From Escherichia coli (lineage in GTDB: Bacteria; Pseudomonadota; Gammaproteobacteria; Enterobacterales; Enterobacteriaceae), in assembly GCF_048403405.1 (NCBI RefSeq), contig NZ_CP183134.1: a stretch of 8,150 nucleotides of DNA; one strand, given 5' to 3'. The notes below the pieces were generated by a model, which was given only the letters and a program-made list of their open reading frames with translations, searched no databases and had not been told where the DNA came from. The position numbers and the translations under genes were made by a program. Below are positions 1-8,150 of this stretch, one piece after another (position 1 is the stretch's first letter; each line of letters starts with the position of its first letter).

Positions 1-653
1 TCTGTTTCGATACCGCGTGTTTCCATCGCACAGGCAGACTTTCCGAGGTGAATACCCGGCGTTTTCTCAAGCCCCTGTCGCTCGTATGAACGATGGTCTA
101 TCTCTTTCTGATAACCGGCGTTCGCCAGTGCCCTGTTTGCATGGTCAGCCCATGATGCACGCCACGTCTCGGCATGTGTCCGGTCGTTCCAGTCCCTGAC
201 CTTTCCGCCGAACCCCGCAGGTCCGACAGCCCTCGTGGTCAGCATAATGTGCGCATGGGGATTTGTTTTATCCATGTGATGGAACGCCACATCAGCAATC
301 ATGCCCTGACTGACAAAGTTTTCTCTGACAAAGGCGAGAACGGTTTCCCGTGCGGCATCCTGCGGCAGTTCGTGGGGGATGGCGAGTTCAATTTCCCGCG
401 CAAGTTGTGAGTTCTTCCGGCGTTCGGCCTTCTCAACGGCATTCCAGAGTTCGGCACGGTTCGTACACCAGGCAGGGGCTGTCGCGGGGGTCAGAATCAC
501 AGCCTCAGCCACACCGCTTTTGCGGGTGTAGTCGTGAGTCAGTCCGGTACGCTCATCAAGCATTAGTGAACCAGAACGATAGGCAGCAGAAGCAACGGCG
601 CTGTAGCCGTTGCTTCTGGAGATGATTTTCATACTGAGATGATAAATCGCCAT
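1..653 (-). CDS. mobA: MobA/MobL-family relaxase (MOBQ-like), 5' portion only (N-terminal ~217 codons); remainder lies before the window start
   Basis: Identical to 4075-4727, which is the 5' end of the full mobA at 2562-4727. ATG on minus strand at 651-653. Not in the ORF track because it runs off the window edge. Confidence 0.8.
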   Translation of the reverse strand, partial: MAIYHLSMKIISRSNGYSAVASAAYRSGSLMLDERTGLTHDYTRKSGVAEAVILTPATAPAWCTNRAELWNAVEKAERRKNSQLAREIELAIPHELPQDAARETVLAFVRENFVSQGMIADVAFHHMDKTNPHAHIMLTTRAVGPAGFGGKVRDWNDRTHAETWRASWADHANRALANAGYQKEIDHRSYERQGLEKTPGIHLGKSACAMETRGIET

Positions 654-831
654 TTCTGCCGTAATGCCTTTTTGCAGTTTTCTTTCAGCCCCGCAGGGCG
701 CACACAATCGAAACGGAGTGGAGATTGTATAAGTGCGCATTTCGTGATTTGCCGTGCATTATGCCAGCTCAGTTTTTAAACTACCAGTGACGCGCTAAAA
801 TGCGATTTTTCATCGCGCATGGAGTTACATC
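654..831. other. Putative oriT in the mobA-mobC divergent intergenic region (nic-like motif TAAGTGCGC at 730-738, inverted repeat ACAATC 704-709 / GATTGT 723-728)
   Basis: The motif gtATAAGTGCGCat resembles the MOBQ/RSF1010-type nic core (GTAAGTGCGCCCT as I recall it) and is immediately preceded by an inverted repeat. Position between divergent relaxase and accessory genes matches RSF1010-type organisation. Confidence 0.5.
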
Positions 832-1086
832 ATGAGCAGAACGCTCGAACAGAAGATTGCTGATGCTGAGGCGAGATTACAGCGCCTGAAGGCGAAGAGC
901 CGGAGCCTGGACACAGCGCAGAAGGTCATTGTGGGTGCAGCATTGCTGGCAAAGGTCAGAAAGCCGGAGGAAGTGCAGTTGCGAGCCTGGTTACTCCAGT
1001 TCCTGAAGGCAGAGGTGACACGGCAGGCTGATGTGACGCGAATACTGCCGCTGATTAACGAGCTGGAGGCGCTGCCAGAGCAGTGA
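832..1086 (+). CDS. mobC: MobC-like relaxosome accessory protein (84 aa)
   Basis: Complete ORF with ATG at 832 and GGAG Shine-Dalgarno at 821-824. Divergent from mobA across the putative oriT. The segment QKVIVGAALLAKVRKPEEVQLRAWLLQFL resembles RSF1010 MobC (RKVLVGAMILAKV...) from memory. Confidence 0.65.
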   Translation: MSRTLEQKIADAEARLQRLKAKSRSLDTAQKVIVGAALLAKVRKPEEVQLRAWLLQFLKAEVTRQADVTRILPLINELEALPEQ

Positions 1087-1095
1087 TTGTATCGT

Positions 1096-1155
1096 CCGCT
1101 CGCCGCAGCCCAGCGACCGAGCGTTAGCGAGCGAGTGGGCGAGGAAGCGGAAGTG
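1096..1155. other. ColE1/pMB1-like conserved segment, possible single-strand initiation / primosome assembly site
   Basis: ccgctcgccgcagcccagcgaccgagcgttagcgagcgagtgggcgaggaagcggaagtg is about 85% identical, by eye, to the pBR322/pUC segment ccgctcgccgcagccgaacgaccgagcgcagcgagtcagtgagcgaggaagcggaagag that lies next to the pMB1 DnaA box. Function is inferred, not shown. Confidence 0.35.
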
Positions 1156-1236
1156 AATCAGTCGCCATGTTGAGCACATACGCACGGTTTTTCGACAGGT
1201 GATATGCGCTGAACCCGCATGAATACTGGATTTCCA

Positions 1237-1281
1237 CAGGATTGGAGGGGGTGTATTCGGAATCTTCAATCCTGGTTTTTT
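1237..1281 (+). terminator. Hairpin followed by T6; candidate intrinsic terminator downstream of mobC, or a structured ori element
   Basis: 8-bp stem CAGGATTG (1237-1244) / CAATCCTG (1267-1274), 22-nt loop, then tttttt at 1276-1281. The loop is unusually long for a canonical terminator. Confidence 0.3.
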
Positions 1282-1325
1282 GCAAAACATTGTTTTTATT
1301 GGATTTTTATTTTCAGCACCCCAAG

Positions 1326-1334
1326 TTATCCACA
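1326..1334 (+). promoter_or_regulatory. DnaA box (TTATCCACA, perfect consensus)
   Basis: Exact 9-mer TTATCCACA, directly upstream of the AT-rich region and iterons. Confidence 0.6.
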
Positions 1335-1431
1335 GGCTCGCCGTTAAGTTTTTAAGATCTTATTTTTAGATCTTTTTTTTTAAAACCTTTTTAGGTCTTG
1401 TAACCACATGATTTTAAAGGTGTTCTGGCGA
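1335..1431. other. AT-rich region of the vegetative origin, with two GATC sites (1356-1359, 1369-1372)
   Basis: Long A/T runs (gttaagtttttaagatcttatttttagatctttttttttaaaacctttttagg) between the DnaA box and the iterons. Layout resembles pSC101-type origins. Confidence 0.5.
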
Positions 1432-1519
1432 GATAGGTGGAGCTTTTGGGGGTGATAGGTGGAGCTTTTGGGGGTGATAGGTGGAGCTTTTGGGGGTGAT
1501 AAGTGGAGCTTTTGGGGGT
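1432..1519 (+). repeat. Iterons: 4 tandem 22-bp direct repeats GATAGGTGGAGCTTTTGGGGGT (the fourth has one mismatch, GATAAGTGG)
   Basis: Perfect head-to-tail repeats at 1432-1453, 1454-1475, 1476-1497 and 1498-1519, immediately upstream of a Rep_3 initiator gene. Confidence 0.85.
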
Positions 1520-1540
1520 GTAATCCACAGAAAAAAGGGG

Positions 1541-1570
1541 TTGCAAAAAAAAAACTTCCACCAATATGAT
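1541..1570 (+). promoter_or_regulatory. Putative repA promoter (-35 TTGCAA 1541-1546, 18-bp spacer, -10 TATGAT 1565-1570)
   Basis: Sigma70-like hexamers about 49 nt upstream of the repA ATG. The -10 overlaps an iteron-like half-site GATAGGTGG at 1568-1576. Confidence 0.4.
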
Positions 1571-1598
1571 AGGTGGCGTACAGTAAAAAAACGCCACC
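1558..1598. promoter_or_regulatory. Inverted repeats carrying iteron half-sites; putative RepA autoregulatory operator
   Basis: CCACC (1558-1562) pairs with GGTGG (1572-1576), and GGTGGCG (1572-1578) pairs with CGCCACC (1592-1598). Both overlap or flank the putative -10. Iteron-family plasmids typically have such operators. Confidence 0.45.
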
Positions 1599-1618
1599 AA
1601 TAGCAACGAGCAAGCGAA

Positions 1619-2320
1619 ATGTCAGATCTGATAGCTTACAAATCAAACGCCCTTATCGAGGCAAGCTACAAGCTCACTTTGCAGGAACAGCGCTTCCTGC
1701 TGGTCTGTATCAGCCGCCTGAAATCCGGAGAAGATTCCCCTTCGCCGGATGAACAAAAAACCATGACCATCACGGCTGCAGAGTTTCATGATGCCTTTCC
1801 TGACATGGGACGGCAGCACGCTGAAGCTAGGCTCAAGGAAGCGATAGATCGCCTCTGGGACAGGTCAGTAATCATCAAGAACGAGGAAAAACGAGAAGAG
1901 TTCCGCTGGGTGCAGTACCGGGCGCAGTATTTCAAAGGTGAGGCGAAAGTAGAGATCACCTTCTCCGATGCCATCATGCCGTATCTGACACAGCTCAAGG
2001 GGCAGTTTACGCGGGTAGTCGTGAAGAACGTCTCCAGCCTCTCCAGCACCTACAGCATCCGCATTTACGAGCTGCTCCAGCAGTTCCGCAGCACCGGTGA
2101 CAGAACGATAGCTATCGATGATTTCCGAACCATGCTTGCCGTTGAAGATAAATATCAACAATTCAAAGACTTGAATAAGATGATAATCAAGCCAGCCATC
2201 GCCGAACTGAACGAAAAAAGCGATCTGGTTGTAACGGTTGAGACGATCAAAAAGGGGCGCACGGTTGTAGCCCTGCACTTTCGCTTCAAGGAAGACAAAC
2301 AGATCAAGATGACGATCTAG
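1619..2320 (+). CDS. repA: Rep_3-family iteron-binding replication initiator (233 aa)
   Basis: Complete ORF directly downstream of the iterons. N-terminus MSDLIAYKSNALIEASYKLTLQEQRFLLVCISRL and later segments (ITFSDAIMPYLTQLK, YSIRIYELLQQF) resemble pSC101/pPS10-type RepA as I recall them. Weak Shine-Dalgarno. Confidence 0.88.
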   Translation: MSDLIAYKSNALIEASYKLTLQEQRFLLVCISRLKSGEDSPSPDEQKTMTITAAEFHDAFPDMGRQHAEARLKEAIDRLWDRSVIIKNEEKREEFRWVQYRAQYFKGEAKVEITFSDAIMPYLTQLKGQFTRVVVKNVSSLSSTYSIRIYELLQQFRSTGDRTIAIDDFRTMLAVEDKYQQFKDLNKMIIKPAIAELNEKSDLVVTVETIKKGRTVVALHFRFKEDKQIKMTI

Positions 2321-2339
2321 AATCGATTTTAAGGCACCT

Positions 2340-2366
2340 AAAACGCTCACTGTCGCGTTTTTCTTG
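2340..2366 (+). terminator. Weak hairpin plus T-run downstream of repA
   Basis: AAAACGC (2340-2346) / GCGTTTT (2355-2361) with an 8-nt loop, followed by ttcttg. The stem is AT-rich, so this would be weak at best. Confidence 0.25.
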
Positions 2367-2427
2367 TGTCAGGAATGCGAAGGTACTATTGAAGTGAAAA
2401 GTTGCGTCAAAAACGCTCTGATGCAGC

Positions 2428-2454
2428 AAAAAAAGAACCCCCAATTTTTGGGGG
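2428..2454 (-). terminator. Rho-independent terminator for minus-strand (mobA) transcription
   Basis: GC-rich hairpin CCCCCAA-ttt-TTGGGGG (2438-2454). On the minus strand it is followed by a U-run (the A7 at 2428-2434 on plus). About 108 nt downstream of the mobA stop. Confidence 0.5.
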
Positions 2455-2561
2455 CGGAAAAACAAAACTATGTTTGCGCTATGTGAGTGTGCTTCTTGCA
2501 TTCATCCCTGTCGATGAACATCGACGAACATAACACGATGTTAAACAAAACAAAATATTGT

Positions 2562-4727
2562 TCACATTCCCTGTGACCAACCGCGATCAGGTCTCCTCTC
2601 GGTGGCGTGTGTTCGTGCATCTTCCTCGCGCCGCCATTCGTCCCAGGTACGATTGAAACCCAGCGAGCGGAACAGATGATCCGGCTGTTTTTCTGGTGTG
2701 TTGACGACAGCAAAAAGCGGTGCCTCACGGGTTTTCAGATGAAACTCCATAAGTTCCGGTGCAGGTGATATGTGGCTGTCTGCATCATGATTTACGGCAA
2801 CACCATACCCTGCATACCGTAACCCCTTATCGGTCAGTGCACTGATAACCAGCTGGCTGTTATCGGCTGAGGGAACGGCAAACGCGGGATACAGCGTACC
2901 ATTAAGCCGGACAACACCGCCCAGAGAGTCATCCACGCCCATGACCAGCAAAAGCTGAAGCTGGCGGGTTTCCCGGTCGACAGAACTCATGACCGGCATC
3001 AGCGTCGGTGGCAGACGTCCCTGCGTAAAATCCACCTTCCTTGCTGCCAGTGATGGCATGGCTGGCTGGCGGTCTTCTCCAAGACAGAAAGACTCCGGCC
3101 ATGTCTTCGGCTGGCGGAGATTGCGGGTATGTTGCGGCCATGTCTGGCAAACCTGCGTCAGAAGTTGCTCAAAGGTCGCAGAGGAATAAATACGTTGCAG
3201 TGGTGGATGTTGGCCGATTTCGCTTCGGTCACAGATATAACCACTCCTGTCACGTATTAAATCAACACTCTCAAAGATCCTGGTGCGGTATTTCTCCAGC
3301 TCGTTCCCCCAGAGCGTGTATTCTCCGTTCCGGTTGTGAAGCAGAAGGTAACAAGTCATTTCCCCGTTACCAGGCATGGGAGCCTCGCCATACCCCGTAA
3401 CGACTGCTCTCAGCACCCCTGAATCCATAACGGCATTGTCATTTTTCCTGAGCTGTTCCGCTCGTCGCTCCGCGCGACTACGTTCTGTATCCTCCAGCTC
3501 CTTCCGGCGTAATTCATCTTCACGTTTAAGCAACTGGGCTCTGAGAGCTGCAAGGCCGGATTCCCCCCACTGCTGCCACTGTTTTTCAAATGCCGTCTGA
3601 CTCGCGGGAATGTCCTGTTTCTCCACCTTCCGGTAATGCTGTCGCAATTTTTCCATTTGCTGGCTCAGAGACTGGATTTTTCCCTGCTCACTACGGTATT
3701 CCGGTGCAGCCCATTGCATCAGGGGAATACGGGAAAAACCGGACGAAAACGGCGATGATTTTTTCAGGCTGGCAGCATGGCTCATCGCTTCCTTTCGTTC
3801 GGTGTTCAGCTCTTCCCAGCGTCTGCGCGTCGCCTGCATATCTGCCATCATCGACATGGCGTTACTGGTGAGTTTCCATGCCGCGTTACTGTCCTTCGGC
3901 AACGCTTCGATGATGTCACGTAGTGTGTACGAAGTTGCGTTGTCAGGAAGCCCGATATTCAGAAGGTCAGCCACACGGCGGGCAGGCTCTGTCAGCCCGC
4001 TGTTCCTGAGTTCGGTGCGGGAAATCTGTATTTCCAGGTTAAGCCTGTTAATCAGACGATTCTGTTCGCCGCGTTCTGTTTCGATACCGCGTGTTTCCAT
4101 CGCACAGGCAGACTTTCCGAGGTGAATACCCGGCGTTTTCTCAAGCCCCTGTCGCTCGTATGAACGATGGTCTATCTCTTTCTGATAACCGGCGTTCGCC
4201 AGTGCCCTGTTTGCATGGTCAGCCCATGATGCACGCCACGTCTCGGCATGTGTCCGGTCGTTCCAGTCCCTGACCTTTCCGCCGAACCCCGCAGGTCCGA
4301 CAGCCCTCGTGGTCAGCATAATGTGCGCATGGGGATTTGTTTTATCCATGTGATGGAACGCCACATCAGCAATCATGCCCTGACTGACAAAGTTTTCTCT
4401 GACAAAGGCGAGAACGGTTTCCCGTGCGGCATCCTGCGGCAGTTCGTGGGGGATGGCGAGTTCAATTTCCCGCGCAAGTTGTGAGTTCTTCCGGCGTTCG
4501 GCCTTCTCAACGGCATTCCAGAGTTCGGCACGGTTCGTACACCAGGCAGGGGCTGTCGCGGGGGTCAGAATCACAGCCTCAGCCACACCGCTTTTGCGGG
4601 TGTAGTCGTGAGTCAGTCCGGTACGCTCATCAAGCATTAGTGAACCAGAACGATAGGCAGCAGAAGCAACGGCGCTGTAGCCGTTGCTTCTGGAGATGAT
4701 TTTCATACTGAGATGATAAATCGCCAT
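2562..4727 (-). CDS. mobA: MobA/MobL-family relaxase, MOBQ-like (721 aa from the MAIYHL start; the ORF track extends to an upstream ATG at 4814)
   Basis: N-terminal MAIYHLSMKIISRSNGYSAVASAAYRSG (Tyr at residue 25, as in RSF1010 MobA), histidine motif NPHAHIML, and WADHANRAL, IDHRSYERQG, GIHLGKS, METRGI all parallel RSF1010 MobA motifs. The upstream ATG at 4812-4814 overlaps the nic-like motif and has no Shine-Dalgarno. Confidence 0.85.
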   Translation of the reverse strand: MAIYHLSMKIISRSNGYSAVASAAYRSGSLMLDERTGLTHDYTRKSGVAEAVILTPATAPAWCTNRAELWNAVEKAERRKNSQLAREIELAIPHELPQDAARETVLAFVRENFVSQGMIADVAFHHMDKTNPHAHIMLTTRAVGPAGFGGKVRDWNDRTHAETWRASWADHANRALANAGYQKEIDHRSYERQGLEKTPGIHLGKSACAMETRGIETERGEQNRLINRLNLEIQISRTELRNSGLTEPARRVADLLNIGLPDNATSYTLRDIIEALPKDSNAAWKLTSNAMSMMADMQATRRRWEELNTERKEAMSHAASLKKSSPFSSGFSRIPLMQWAAPEYRSEQGKIQSLSQQMEKLRQHYRKVEKQDIPASQTAFEKQWQQWGESGLAALRAQLLKREDELRRKELEDTERSRAERRAEQLRKNDNAVMDSGVLRAVVTGYGEAPMPGNGEMTCYLLLHNRNGEYTLWGNELEKYRTRIFESVDLIRDRSGYICDRSEIGQHPPLQRIYSSATFEQLLTQVCQTWPQHTRNLRQPKTWPESFCLGEDRQPAMPSLAARKVDFTQGRLPPTLMPVMSSVDRETRQLQLLLVMGVDDSLGGVVRLNGTLYPAFAVPSADNSQLVISALTDKGLRYAGYGVAVNHDADSHISPAPELMEFHLKTREAPLFAVVNTPEKQPDHLFRSLGFNRTWDEWRREEDARTHATERRPDRGWSQGM

Positions 4728-4905
4728 TTCTGCCGTAATGCCTTTTTGCAGTTTTCTTTCAGCCCCGCAGGGCGCACACAATCGAAACGGAGTGGAGATT
4801 GTATAAGTGCGCATTTCGTGATTTGCCGTGCATTATGCCAGCTCAGTTTTTAAACTACCAGTGACGCGCTAAAATGCGATTTTTCATCGCGCATGGAGTT
4901 ACATC
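4728..4905. other. Putative oriT, copy 2 (nic-like motif at 4804-4812)
   Basis: Identical to 654-831. Confidence 0.5.
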
Positions 4906-5160
4906 ATGAGCAGAACGCTCGAACAGAAGATTGCTGATGCTGAGGCGAGATTACAGCGCCTGAAGGCGAAGAGCCGGAGCCTGGACACAGCGCAGAAGGT
5001 CATTGTGGGTGCAGCATTGCTGGCAAAGGTCAGAAAGCCGGAGGAAGTGCAGTTGCGAGCCTGGTTACTCCAGTTCCTGAAGGCAGAGGTGACACGGCAG
5101 GCTGATGTGACGCGAATACTGCCGCTGATTAACGAGCTGGAGGCGCTGCCAGAGCAGTGA
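4906..5160 (+). CDS. mobC: MobC-like relaxosome accessory protein, copy 2
   Basis: Identical to 832-1086. Confidence 0.65.
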   Translation: MSRTLEQKIADAEARLQRLKAKSRSLDTAQKVIVGAALLAKVRKPEEVQLRAWLLQFLKAEVTRQADVTRILPLINELEALPEQ

Positions 5161-5169
5161 TTGTATCGT

Positions 5170-5229
5170 CCGCTCGCCGCAGCCCAGCGACCGAGCGTTA
5201 GCGAGCGAGTGGGCGAGGAAGCGGAAGTG
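5170..5229. other. ColE1/pMB1-like conserved segment (possible primosome assembly site), copy 2
   Basis: Identical to 1096-1155. Confidence 0.35.
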
Positions 5230-5310
5230 AATCAGTCGCCATGTTGAGCACATACGCACGGTTTTTCGACAGGTGATATGCGCTGAACCCGCATGAATAC
5301 TGGATTTCCA

Positions 5311-5355
5311 CAGGATTGGAGGGGGTGTATTCGGAATCTTCAATCCTGGTTTTTT
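5311..5355 (+). terminator. Hairpin plus T6, copy 2
   Basis: Identical to 1237-1281. Confidence 0.3.
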
Positions 5356-5399
5356 GCAAAACATTGTTTTTATTGGATTTTTATTTTCAGCACCCCAAG

Positions 5400-5408
5400 T
5401 TATCCACA
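5400..5408 (+). promoter_or_regulatory. DnaA box TTATCCACA, copy 2
   Basis: Identical to 1326-1334. Confidence 0.6.
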
Positions 5409-5505
5409 GGCTCGCCGTTAAGTTTTTAAGATCTTATTTTTAGATCTTTTTTTTTAAAACCTTTTTAGGTCTTGTAACCACATGATTTTAAAGGTGTTCT
5501 GGCGA
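5409..5505. other. AT-rich origin region with two GATC sites, copy 2
   Basis: Identical to 1335-1431. Confidence 0.5.
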
Positions 5506-5593
5506 GATAGGTGGAGCTTTTGGGGGTGATAGGTGGAGCTTTTGGGGGTGATAGGTGGAGCTTTTGGGGGTGATAAGTGGAGCTTTTGGGGGT
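5506..5593 (+). repeat. Iterons, 4 x 22 bp, copy 2
   Basis: Identical to 1432-1519. Confidence 0.85.
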
Positions 5594-5614
5594 GTAATCC
5601 ACAGAAAAAAGGGG

Positions 5615-5644
5615 TTGCAAAAAAAAAACTTCCACCAATATGAT
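5615..5644 (+). promoter_or_regulatory. Putative repA promoter, copy 2
   Basis: Identical to 1541-1570. Confidence 0.4.
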
Positions 5645-5672
5645 AGGTGGCGTACAGTAAAAAAACGCCACC
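5632..5672. promoter_or_regulatory. Inverted-repeat operator, copy 2
   Basis: Identical to 1558-1598. Confidence 0.45.
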
Positions 5673-5692
5673 AATAGCAACGAGCAAGCGAA

Positions 5693-6394
5693 ATGTCAGA
5701 TCTGATAGCTTACAAATCAAACGCCCTTATCGAGGCAAGCTACAAGCTCACTTTGCAGGAACAGCGCTTCCTGCTGGTCTGTATCAGCCGCCTGAAATCC
5801 GGAGAAGATTCCCCTTCGCCGGATGAACAAAAAACCATGACCATCACGGCTGCAGAGTTTCATGATGCCTTTCCTGACATGGGACGGCAGCACGCTGAAG
5901 CTAGGCTCAAGGAAGCGATAGATCGCCTCTGGGACAGGTCAGTAATCATCAAGAACGAGGAAAAACGAGAAGAGTTCCGCTGGGTGCAGTACCGGGCGCA
6001 GTATTTCAAAGGTGAGGCGAAAGTAGAGATCACCTTCTCCGATGCCATCATGCCGTATCTGACACAGCTCAAGGGGCAGTTTACGCGGGTAGTCGTGAAG
6101 AACGTCTCCAGCCTCTCCAGCACCTACAGCATCCGCATTTACGAGCTGCTCCAGCAGTTCCGCAGCACCGGTGACAGAACGATAGCTATCGATGATTTCC
6201 GAACCATGCTTGCCGTTGAAGATAAATATCAACAATTCAAAGACTTGAATAAGATGATAATCAAGCCAGCCATCGCCGAACTGAACGAAAAAAGCGATCT
6301 GGTTGTAACGGTTGAGACGATCAAAAAGGGGCGCACGGTTGTAGCCCTGCACTTTCGCTTCAAGGAAGACAAACAGATCAAGATGACGATCTAG
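5693..6394 (+). CDS. repA: Rep_3-family replication initiator, copy 2
   Basis: Protein identical to 1619-2320. Confidence 0.88.
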   Translation: MSDLIAYKSNALIEASYKLTLQEQRFLLVCISRLKSGEDSPSPDEQKTMTITAAEFHDAFPDMGRQHAEARLKEAIDRLWDRSVIIKNEEKREEFRWVQYRAQYFKGEAKVEITFSDAIMPYLTQLKGQFTRVVVKNVSSLSSTYSIRIYELLQQFRSTGDRTIAIDDFRTMLAVEDKYQQFKDLNKMIIKPAIAELNEKSDLVVTVETIKKGRTVVALHFRFKEDKQIKMTI

Positions 6395-6413
6395 AATCGA
6401 TTTTAAGGCACCT

Positions 6414-6440
6414 AAAACGCTCACTGTCGCGTTTTTCTTG
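6414..6440 (+). terminator. Weak hairpin plus T-run downstream of repA, copy 2
   Basis: Identical to 2340-2366. Confidence 0.25.
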
Positions 6441-6501
6441 TGTCAGGAATGCGAAGGTACTATTGAAGTGAAAAGTTGCGTCAAAAACGCTCTGATGCAG
6501 C

Positions 6502-6528
6502 AAAAAAAGAACCCCCAATTTTTGGGGG
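6502..6528 (-). terminator. Rho-independent terminator for mobA, copy 2
   Basis: Identical to 2428-2454. Confidence 0.5.
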
Positions 6529-6635
6529 CGGAAAAACAAAACTATGTTTGCGCTATGTGAGTGTGCTTCTTGCATTCATCCCTGTCGATGAACATCGACG
6601 AACATAACACGATGTTAAACAAAACAAAATATTGT

Positions 6636-8150
6636 TCACATTCCCTGTGACCAACCGCGATCAGGTCTCCTCTCGGTGGCGTGTGTTCGTGCATCTTCCT
6701 CGCGCCGCCATTCGTCCCAGGTACGATTGAAACCCAGCGAGCGGAACAGATGATCCGGCTGTTTTTCTGGTGTGTTGACGACAGCAAAAAGCGGTGCCTC
6801 ACGGGTTTTCAGATGAAACTCCATAAGTTCCGGTGCAGGTGATATGTGGCTGTCTGCATCATGATTTACGGCAACACCATACCCTGCATACCGTAACCCC
6901 TTATCGGTCAGTGCACTGATAACCAGCTGGCTGTTATCGGCTGAGGGAACGGCAAACGCGGGATACAGCGTACCATTAAGCCGGACAACACCGCCCAGAG
7001 AGTCATCCACGCCCATGACCAGCAAAAGCTGAAGCTGGCGGGTTTCCCGGTCGACAGAACTCATGACCGGCATCAGCGTCGGTGGCAGACGTCCCTGCGT
7101 AAAATCCACCTTCCTTGCTGCCAGTGATGGCATGGCTGGCTGGCGGTCTTCTCCAAGACAGAAAGACTCCGGCCATGTCTTCGGCTGGCGGAGATTGCGG
7201 GTATGTTGCGGCCATGTCTGGCAAACCTGCGTCAGAAGTTGCTCAAAGGTCGCAGAGGAATAAATACGTTGCAGTGGTGGATGTTGGCCGATTTCGCTTC
7301 GGTCACAGATATAACCACTCCTGTCACGTATTAAATCAACACTCTCAAAGATCCTGGTGCGGTATTTCTCCAGCTCGTTCCCCCAGAGCGTGTATTCTCC
7401 GTTCCGGTTGTGAAGCAGAAGGTAACAAGTCATTTCCCCGTTACCAGGCATGGGAGCCTCGCCATACCCCGTAACGACTGCTCTCAGCACCCCTGAATCC
7501 ATAACGGCATTGTCATTTTTCCTGAGCTGTTCCGCTCGTCGCTCCGCGCGACTACGTTCTGTATCCTCCAGCTCCTTCCGGCGTAATTCATCTTCACGTT
7601 TAAGCAACTGGGCTCTGAGAGCTGCAAGGCCGGATTCCCCCCACTGCTGCCACTGTTTTTCAAATGCCGTCTGACTCGCGGGAATGTCCTGTTTCTCCAC
7701 CTTCCGGTAATGCTGTCGCAATTTTTCCATTTGCTGGCTCAGAGACTGGATTTTTCCCTGCTCACTACGGTATTCCGGTGCAGCCCATTGCATCAGGGGA
7801 ATACGGGAAAAACCGGACGAAAACGGCGATGATTTTTTCAGGCTGGCAGCATGGCTCATCGCTTCCTTTCGTTCGGTGTTCAGCTCTTCCCAGCGTCTGC
7901 GCGTCGCCTGCATATCTGCCATCATCGACATGGCGTTACTGGTGAGTTTCCATGCCGCGTTACTGTCCTTCGGCAACGCTTCGATGATGTCGCGTAGTGT
8001 GTACGAAGTTGCGTTGTCAGGAAGCCCGATATTCAGAAGGTCGAGCCACACGGCGGGCAGGCTCTGTCGGCCCCGCTGTTCCTGAGTTCGGTGCGGGAAA
8101 TCTGTATTTCCAGGTTAGGCCTGTTAATCAGACGATTCTGTTCGCCGCGT
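6636..8150 (-). CDS. mobA: MobA relaxase, copy 2; 5' end runs off the window and carries apparent frameshifts near 8043 and 8071 relative to copy 1
   Basis: Identical to copy 1 up to about 7991. The ORF track ends at a GTG at 8051 because two 1-bp insertions shift the frame. I suspect these are consensus errors at a contig end rather than a true pseudogene. Confidence 0.6.

Follow-up and report, generated by a model that had tools for sequence, protein, structure and literature searches.

The mobA-mobC intergenic region as the probable transfer origin of a 4074-bp MOBQ41 plasmid of Escherichia coli, and the translation start of its relaxase gene

The plasmid and its mobilization locus

The window, which is the whole stretch of DNA that was analyzed (positions 1-8150), consists of two tandem, head-to-tail copies of a circular plasmid of 4074 bp, the best period detected being 4074. 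As the unit is repeated, every feature occurs twice. The two copies differ by a single substitution near the end (3918/7992) and by small indels in copy 2. These indels are confined to the last ~110 bases of that copy (about 8041-8150) and resemble read or assembly errors. Along its entire length, the plasmid unit shares 99.9% identity with numerous complete plasmids of 4074 bp from E. coli and Salmonella, and 619 PLSDB records match it, most of which are typed as mobilizable, MOBQ and rep_cluster_1778. The latter cluster was assigned by MOB-suite to the window plasmid, and likewise to pMG828-2 and pEC958B. The following genes and sites frame the region of interest.

2562-4727, minus strand: mobA (mobQ) relaxase gene, 721 amino acids when read from MAIYHL; 2166 nt, as in the PGAP annotation
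1-653, minus strand: second copy of mobA, N-terminal part
From 6636: further copy of mobA, which extends into the terminal part of the window where the errors are found
654-831 (copy 2: 4728-4905), plus strand: mobA-mobC intergenic region of 178 bp, the probable oriT
832-1086 (copy 2: 4906-5160), plus strand: mobC, relaxase accessory gene, 84 amino acids
1432-1519 (copy 2: 5506-5593): array of four 22-bp iterons in tandem, GATAGGTGGAGCTTTTGGGGGT, preceding the Rep_3-type rep gene
1619-2320: Rep_3-type initiator gene, matching the RepM and RepE models

The fourth iteron of the GATAGGTGGAGCTTTTGGGGGT array has one change, and the array, which is the oriV described for pIGWZ12, adjoins an A/T-rich stretch. 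PLSDB also includes records of 8166 bp and 12124 bp that possess two to three copies of the oriT core that is described below. The pattern suggests that concatemer assemblies are common for the 4074-bp plasmid, and such head-to-tail assemblies duplicate the oriT feature.

The MOBQ4 relaxase family was defined by Garcillán-Barcia et al. (2019; PMC6856555). Within the family, MOBQ41 comprises cryptic Rep_3 plasmids of ~4 kb that are exemplified by pIGWZ12, pE2022_4, pSMS35_4 and pEC958B (PMC6856555). The window plasmid, among whose named relatives are pIGWZ12, pEC958B and pSMS35_4, displays the backbone of this group: a Rep_3-type initiator, iterons, a small divergent mobC gene and a unit length of ~4 kb. 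The relaxase is 97% identical to MobQ of pEC958B, which is listed as a MOBQ41 plasmid in Table S2 of the defining study (PMC6856555). The 178-bp region is bounded by the ATG of the MAIYHL reading of mobA (651-653, minus strand) and by the mobC ATG (832), and shows five differences from pEC958B when counted from the alignment. The oriT of the MOBQ4 plasmids pE2022_4, pIGWZ12 and pEC958B is the same element in each respect compared, with a length of 178 bp, a 97%-identical relaxase, and a Rep_3/iteron replicon of ~4.07 kb (PMC6856555).

The sequence-only reading of this DNA had placed an oriT between the divergent mobA and mobC genes, and had proposed a mobilization assay with the cloned fragment as a check. 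The location is borne out in that the same region has been mobilized experimentally in the family with which the window shares 97% relaxase identity. The assay itself has been published on essentially identical sequence: the 178-bp mobA-mobC intergenic region of family members was cloned and proved to be a functional oriT, being mobilized with MobA and MobC and the R64 helper in trans in constructs derived from pE2022_4 and ColE9-J (PMC6856555). MOBQ4 mobilization is most effective with MPFI helpers, R64 among them, and transfer in trans is 500-1000-fold below that in cis, which indicates that the relaxases prefer an oriT in cis (PMC6856555). Deletion of mobC lowers mobilization by 0.6-1.5 log, which marks MobC as stimulatory but not essential (PMC6856555).

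The 84-amino-acid product of the window gene is named relaxase accessory protein MobC by PGAP. No significant match to the protein was found in Pfam or NCBIfam, and PSI-BLAST searches in the 2019 study detected no homologue of MobC among other relaxase accessory proteins (PMC6856555). Pairwise comparison of the window protein with MobC of IncQ1/RSF1010 showed 36% identity over 66 amino acids (E = 7e-7). As it is a homologue of IncQ MobC, the window protein likely has an RSF1010-like role in assisting nicking.

Overall, a probability of roughly 0.87 is placed on the reading in which a mobilizable MOBQ41 plasmid has its origin of conjugative transfer at 654-831 and mobA is translated from the MAIYHL ATG. 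The location of oriT, the relaxase family and the mobA start already are published and present in the RefSeq annotation, and are not new. The additions made here are a predicted nick position, covariation in the oriT hairpin, a closer kinship with the pSK41/NES system than with RSF1010, and orphan oriT cores on Rep_1 mini-plasmids.

Hairpin, nick core and predicted nick

Within the 178-bp region, a shorter block holds the elements that are discussed in this section.

692-747 (copy 2: 4766-4821), plus strand: conserved oriT core of ~56 bp, comprising hairpin and nick core
698-703, plus strand: outer left arm GCGCAC, pairing with GTGCGC (733-738) across an ATAA bulge (729-732)
704-728, plus strand: inner hairpin, with ACAATC (704-709), a 13-nt loop and GATTGT (723-728)
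730-738 (copy 2: 4804-4812), plus strand: MOBQ nick core TAAGTGCGC, exact match

The core is conserved in 36 unique variants collected from PLSDB loci and 120 metagenome contigs. When folded as single-stranded DNA it adopts a bulged double stem with a predicted energy of −10.1 kcal/mol (z = −2.4). The inverted repeat ACAATC/GATTGT that had been noted 5′ of the nick motif is present at 704-709 and 723-728. A 6-bp inverted repeat alone is not above chance, as nine inverted repeats occur within 206 bp; the hairpin instead is taken as real because of covariation in relatives. Twenty of the 36 variants carry ACAATC/GATTGT, 14 carry ACAAAC/GTTTGT, and one carries ACAATT/GATTGT with a G·T wobble, whereas the remaining variant, whose right arm has a deletion, was not parsable. 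Mixed stems that would be unpaired were not observed in any variant. The inner helix was assessed on 19 distinct variants whose loop is 13 nt long. It is fully paired (100%) in this set and includes one compensatory pair, T-A to A-T, in six variants along with one G·T wobble. The 13-nt loop contains an AC/GT mini-stem, and this 2-bp element also has undergone one double change, A-T to C-G. Loop lengths of 13, 4 and 3 nt (GAA) are found among the variants with preservation of the stem. In the outer helix, pairing reaches 86% and covariation is absent, in part because the search pattern held the 3′ side (733-738) constant. The outer GCGCAC/GTGCGC stem was dropped as a defining feature for these reasons.

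Published dissection of the MOBQ4 oriT can be laid over this structure. Cutting the 178-bp element between positions 70 and 71, which yields fragments 1-70 and 71-178, abolished transfer (PMC6856555). If the numbering in that study runs from the mobA side, the cut corresponds to the junction between 723 and 724 inside the right arm of the hairpin, which would explain the loss of function. If the numbering instead runs from the mobC side, the hairpin and nick core are intact on the 108-bp fragment which nevertheless failed to transfer, and 762-831 also would be required.

The MOBQ consensus has been published as NWACCNNTAAGTGCGCCCTYNN, which contains the core TAAGTGCGC (PMC3832669), and the RSF1010 substrate as CAGTTTCTCGAAGAGAAACCGGTAAGTGCG/CCCTCCC with the core TAAGTGCG/CCCTCCC (PMC4814116, Table 1). 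The plus strand of the window matches the core in nine of nine bases at 730-738 and again at 4804-4812, where the sequence-only reading had located the motif. Over both strands of the window, 0.08 exact matches to the 9-mer TAAGTGCGC would be expected, and none of 200 shuffles produced two matches. The two matches nevertheless count as a single independent occurrence, as the window repeats a 4074-bp unit. A search for TAAGTGCGC with one mismatch was not above chance and weight accordingly is placed only on the exact match. Alignment with characterized MOBQ oriT sequences, which had been suggested as a further check, was performed three ways with the window, pSK41 and IncQ1 sites: TAAGTGCGC is invariant among them. 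The pSK41 and RSF1010 oriT sequences that served as queries both matched real plasmid records at 100%.

Homology with these systems points to a predicted nick between G737 and C738 on the plus strand (copy 2: between 4811 and 4812), within the stretch GCGCACACAATCGAAACGGAGTGGAGATTGTATAAGTGCGCATTTCGTGA of which CATTTCGTGA is the portion 3′ of the putative cleavage site. The predicted nick precedes the mobA ATG by 84 nt. The stem of the inner hairpin ends at 728, 9 nt before this position, in agreement with the 8-9 nt that separate inverted repeat and nick in MOBQ-type sites. No nick position is given for the MOBQ4 oriT in the study that defined the family (PMC6856555), and no published nick mapping for MOBQ4 was found in a literature search that left out the work of Zaleski (2015) on the pIGWZ12 oriT.

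A nick elsewhere within the 178 bp than at the TAAGTGCGC match is unlikely, but is the alternative that survives best. Downstream of the predicted nick the sequence does not follow the MOBQ consensus, in which CCCT is found: the window reads C-ATT and its relatives C-ACT, with agreement only at the first C and the T. Moreover, a 9-mer match together with a 6-bp inverted repeat would be modest evidence if considered alone. Against displacement of the nick to another site, the exact 9-mer is expected only about 0.08 times per window, is on the correct strand, and is situated 9 nt from a covarying hairpin, as in pSK41, compared with 8 nt in RSF1010. It also lies inside the sole block that is conserved in the orphan plasmids described below. 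Thus, the position between G737 and C738 is retained as the predicted nick.

A 9-bp tandem duplication, in which GCACTTCGT is present twice, occurs directly 3′ of the predicted nick in p4-S1-KEN-07-A (L016), aligned to 738-746. The same duplication is found in a 2744-bp mini-plasmid (L009) and in several metagenome variants that end in …TTCGTGCA, and thereby recurs in mini-plasmids that lack a relaxase as well as in a MOBQ41 plasmid. In addition, hairpins with short loops (ACAAAC-TTTA/CTTA/GAA-GTTTGT) are attached to an identical 22-bp sequence on the nick side at loci L030, L070, L072, L079, L098 and L100. In L030, a 2678-bp metagenome contig, the 22-bp sequence adjoins a relaxase that is 46% identical to that of the window, and in L098 it is at the 3′ end of a short open reading frame for a relaxase domain that is 36% identical. 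The sequence is present also on contigs without a relaxase. By these comparisons, the putative nick core is shared beyond the MOBQ4 family as currently defined.

Start codon of mobA

The longest open reading frame for the relaxase spans 2562-4814 on the minus strand, specifies 750 amino acids and begins with MRTYTIST. Its ATG corresponds to the reverse complement of CAT at 738-740 (copy 2: 4812-4814) and includes the last base of the nick motif, which agrees with the earlier description of a start inside this motif. The MAIYHL ATG (651-653; copy 2: 4725-4727) is 29 codons downstream. The interval between the two candidates is as follows.

4728-4814 (copy 1: 654-740), minus strand: 29 codons that spuriously extend the N-terminus of the longest open reading frame, consisting of oriT DNA

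The sequence-only reading had preferred the MAIYHL ATG as the start of mobA, with the catalytic Tyr at residue 25 as in MobA of RSF1010. Several independent lines of evidence support this preference. First, the RefSeq/PGAP mobQ gene is 2166 nt in length, which corresponds to the MAIYHL start. Second, the NCBIfam MobQ profile NF041496 matches residues 30-222 of the long frame with profile positions 1-197 (263.9 bits, above the cut-off of 200), and position 1 of this profile and of three TraA-type NCBIfam profiles aligns to residue 30. Third, the PDB chains of NES (4HT4) and MobA (2NS6), each of which starts at Ala2, align from residue 31. Fourth, the catalytic residues numbered for the family as Y25, E87, E89, H125, H133 and H135 (PMC6856555) all fall on Tyr, Glu and His only if counted from MAIYHL, which confirms the placement of the catalytic Tyr.

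The upstream ATG itself exists because of a difference between the window lineage and the MOBQ4 family at position 740 (copy 2: 4814), three bases 3′ of the predicted nick, where the window has T and almost all relatives have C; the latter read GTG in place of ATG. Only five of 653 PLSDB records are at least 99% identical in the 60-bp core, and the upstream ATG is a rare allele. In pMG828-2, an 8-nt deletion between the two starts shifts the upstream frame, and in the 46%-identical metagenomic relaxase of L030 a stop codon is located at −30 and Tyr25 is reached from a GTG start. The DNA of the extension furthermore is conserved in plasmids that entirely lack mobA.

The absence of a Shine-Dalgarno sequence at the upstream ATG also had been cited against it. 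None is present, the best anti-Shine-Dalgarno duplex being −1.7 kcal/mol, but the argument is weak in either direction. The MAIYHL ATG has only a weak and distant candidate, AAGG located 13 nt upstream (−3.2 kcal/mol), compared with −5.9 kcal/mol for mobC. As both candidate starts of mobA score poorly, the Shine-Dalgarno argument is not decisive.

Genuine or alternative initiation at the upstream ATG (740 to 738; copy 2: 4814 to 4812), which would produce a 750-amino-acid MobA with a 29-residue leader, is most unlikely when these data are weighed. The frame is open and ATG-initiated in the window plasmid and remains open in most close relatives with GTG at the same place, the MAIYHL ATG has the weak ribosome-binding signal noted above, and PGAP chose a longer start in one relative, pWP4-S18-ESBL-07_6. 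However, residues 1-29 have no homology in any profile or structure, the rare upstream ATG is without a Shine-Dalgarno sequence, the frame is broken in pMG828-2 and by the stop codon in the 46%-identical relaxase, and the same DNA is conserved where there is no mobA. A leader also would displace the conserved Met-Ala-Ile N-terminus that is close to the active-site Tyr25. Thus, the suggestion that the 29 N-terminal residues are probably untranslated oriT DNA is supported: the extra codons are very probably an artefact of open reading frame calling through oriT, with translation starting at 653 to 651. On plasmids such as these, which are small and very common, gene calling by longest frame appends 29 residues that do not belong to the protein and derive from oriT DNA. 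In the pWP4-S18-ESBL-07_6 locus (L014), RefSeq mobQ extends to locus position 458, which is 105 nt upstream of the MAIYHL ATG and inside oriT. The start-codon error of which the sequence-only reading had warned therefore is present in at least one public record.

The location of the hairpin block between divergent genes raises the further issue of whether it acts mainly in regulation of mobA and mobC, as an operator or a 5′ untranslated structure, rather than as a relaxase substrate. The oriT of RSF1010 overlaps the mob promoters. An invariant block at 756-767 includes TGGCATAAT on the minus strand (766 to 758), which is invariant in eight relatives. Read from the sequence only, TGGCATAAT is a candidate extended −10 element directed toward mobA which would place the oriT hairpin in the mobA 5′ untranslated region. 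A promoter and terminator scan of 560-920 found neither, and the block has been kept in mini-plasmids that have no mobA or mobC to regulate. As a regulatory role also would be additional to the oriT role and not exclusive of it, a mainly regulatory function is judged highly improbable, and the block is interpreted as the relaxase substrate within oriT.

Related transfer systems and orphan cores on mini-plasmids

The sequence-only reading had described the site as RSF1010-like. The description holds for the shared core, the inverted repeat and the layout, but the relaxase is closer to NES of pSK41 (E = 1.5e-28) than to MobA of RSF1010 (E = 3e-11). The NES relaxase of pSK41/pGO1/pLW1043 (PDB 4HT4) is the best PDB match to the relaxase domain of the window. 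The pSK41 site is organized similarly, with the relaxase gene at the left on the opposite strand, followed by the inverted repeat and then the nick core. An identical ATAAGTGCG spacer of 9 nt separates hairpin and nick. The fold also is the same as that of the window core, as both have an ATAA bulge between the inner stem and an outer stem of GTGC/GCAC. The pSK41 nick is 107 nt upstream of nes, compared with 84 nt between the predicted nick and the mobA ATG in the window. In contrast, the hairpin arms and loop of pSK41 are different, with a 7-bp stem and a GGAA loop, and CCCTTA rather than CATTTC follows the nick. In addition, pSK41 is a conjugative plasmid of Gram-positive bacteria, unlike the window plasmid. 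The small open reading frame downstream of the pSK41 oriT has no significant similarity to MobC of the window.

RSF1010/R1162 (IncQ1, MOBQ1; PDB 2NS6) shares with the window the TAAGTGCG/C core with an inverted repeat 5′ of the nick, the divergent mobA-oriT-mobC layout, a MobA protein that starts with MAIYHL and has Tyr25, and a homologous MobC (36%). The arrangement on the relaxase side therefore is common to the window, pSK41 and IncQ1, whereas the divergent mobC is as in IncQ1 only. RSF1010 differs in its 10-bp inverted repeat with a GAA loop, located 8 nt from the nick and followed by CCCTCCC, in the possession of mobB and a primase domain, and in a relaxase domain that is only distantly similar to that of the window. 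The IncQ1 oriT folds as a simple hairpin and not as a bulged double stem. Furthermore, MobA of RSF1010 is efficient in trans, whereas MOBQ4 relaxases prefer an oriT in cis by 500-1000-fold (PMC6856555). Overall, the sequence comparisons indicate that the probable oriT of the window and its relaxase resemble the pSK41/NES system more closely than RSF1010.

By homology with these systems, MobA would recognize the base of the ACAATC…GATTGT hairpin and the single-stranded core ATAAGTGCG on the plus strand, which is antisense to mobA. Residue Tyr25 would attack the G737-C738 phosphodiester bond and become joined covalently to the 5′ phosphate of C738, with MobC, the homologue of RSF1010 MobC, assisting the nicking. 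The coupling protein and type IV secretion system of a helper plasmid would export the plus strand in the 5′ to 3′ direction such that mobC would enter the recipient first and mobA last. Termination would occur when the relaxase meets the reconstituted hairpin and core, and rejoins the ends.

A search with positions 600-900 revealed plasmids of 2.0-2.9 kb that matched only ~692-747. This ~56-bp core, in the absence of mobA or mobC, is present on many mini-plasmids of 1.5-2.9 kb in E. coli, E. fergusonii, Salmonella and Shigella, pRHB10-C23_3 and p2016AM-0673_2 being examples (loci L004-L010, including L006 at 787-855 and L010 at 1501-1556), and on metagenome contigs (L027-L029, L035, L040, L045 and others). 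Among the 653 PLSDB records, 134 have 80-90% identity in the core, and those in a spread sample were mostly relaxase-less mini-plasmids. The Rep protein of one mini-plasmid is a Rep_1 (PF01446) rolling-circle initiator by Pfam with no match in NCBIfam, and the others that were fetched are annotated as 'protein rep'. Carriers of the core that lack a relaxase are scored as mobilizable by MOB-suite. Relaxase-less 'oriT mimic' plasmids are known for the pSK41 system (PMC4993578), and relaxase-less oriT carriers hence exist in both the pSK41 and window systems.

The possibility that the ~56-bp block is a rolling-circle replication element, either a single-strand or a double-strand origin, that is carried by chance draws on its occurrence in many Rep_1 (PF01446) mini-plasmids, but is close to negligible as the window plasmid is an iteron/Rep_3-type replicon (PMC6856555), the block, which about 500 records show beside a MOBQ relaxase, fits the MOBQ nick consensus, and its relaxase-less carriers already are scored as mobilizable by MOB-suite. 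Instead, the mini-plasmids look like oriT hitch-hikers on MOBQ4 relaxases. The orphan cores sit oddly with the published 500-1000-fold preference of these relaxases for an oriT in cis (PMC6856555).

The odds are about even that core 692-747 is a portable module that has spread among Escherichia, Salmonella and Shigella to well over 100 Rep_1 rolling-circle mini-plasmids without a relaxase. In that case, the core alone would constitute a minimal oriT with its nick between G737 and C738, and the mini-plasmids would hitch-hike in nature on MOBQ4 relaxases that act in trans.
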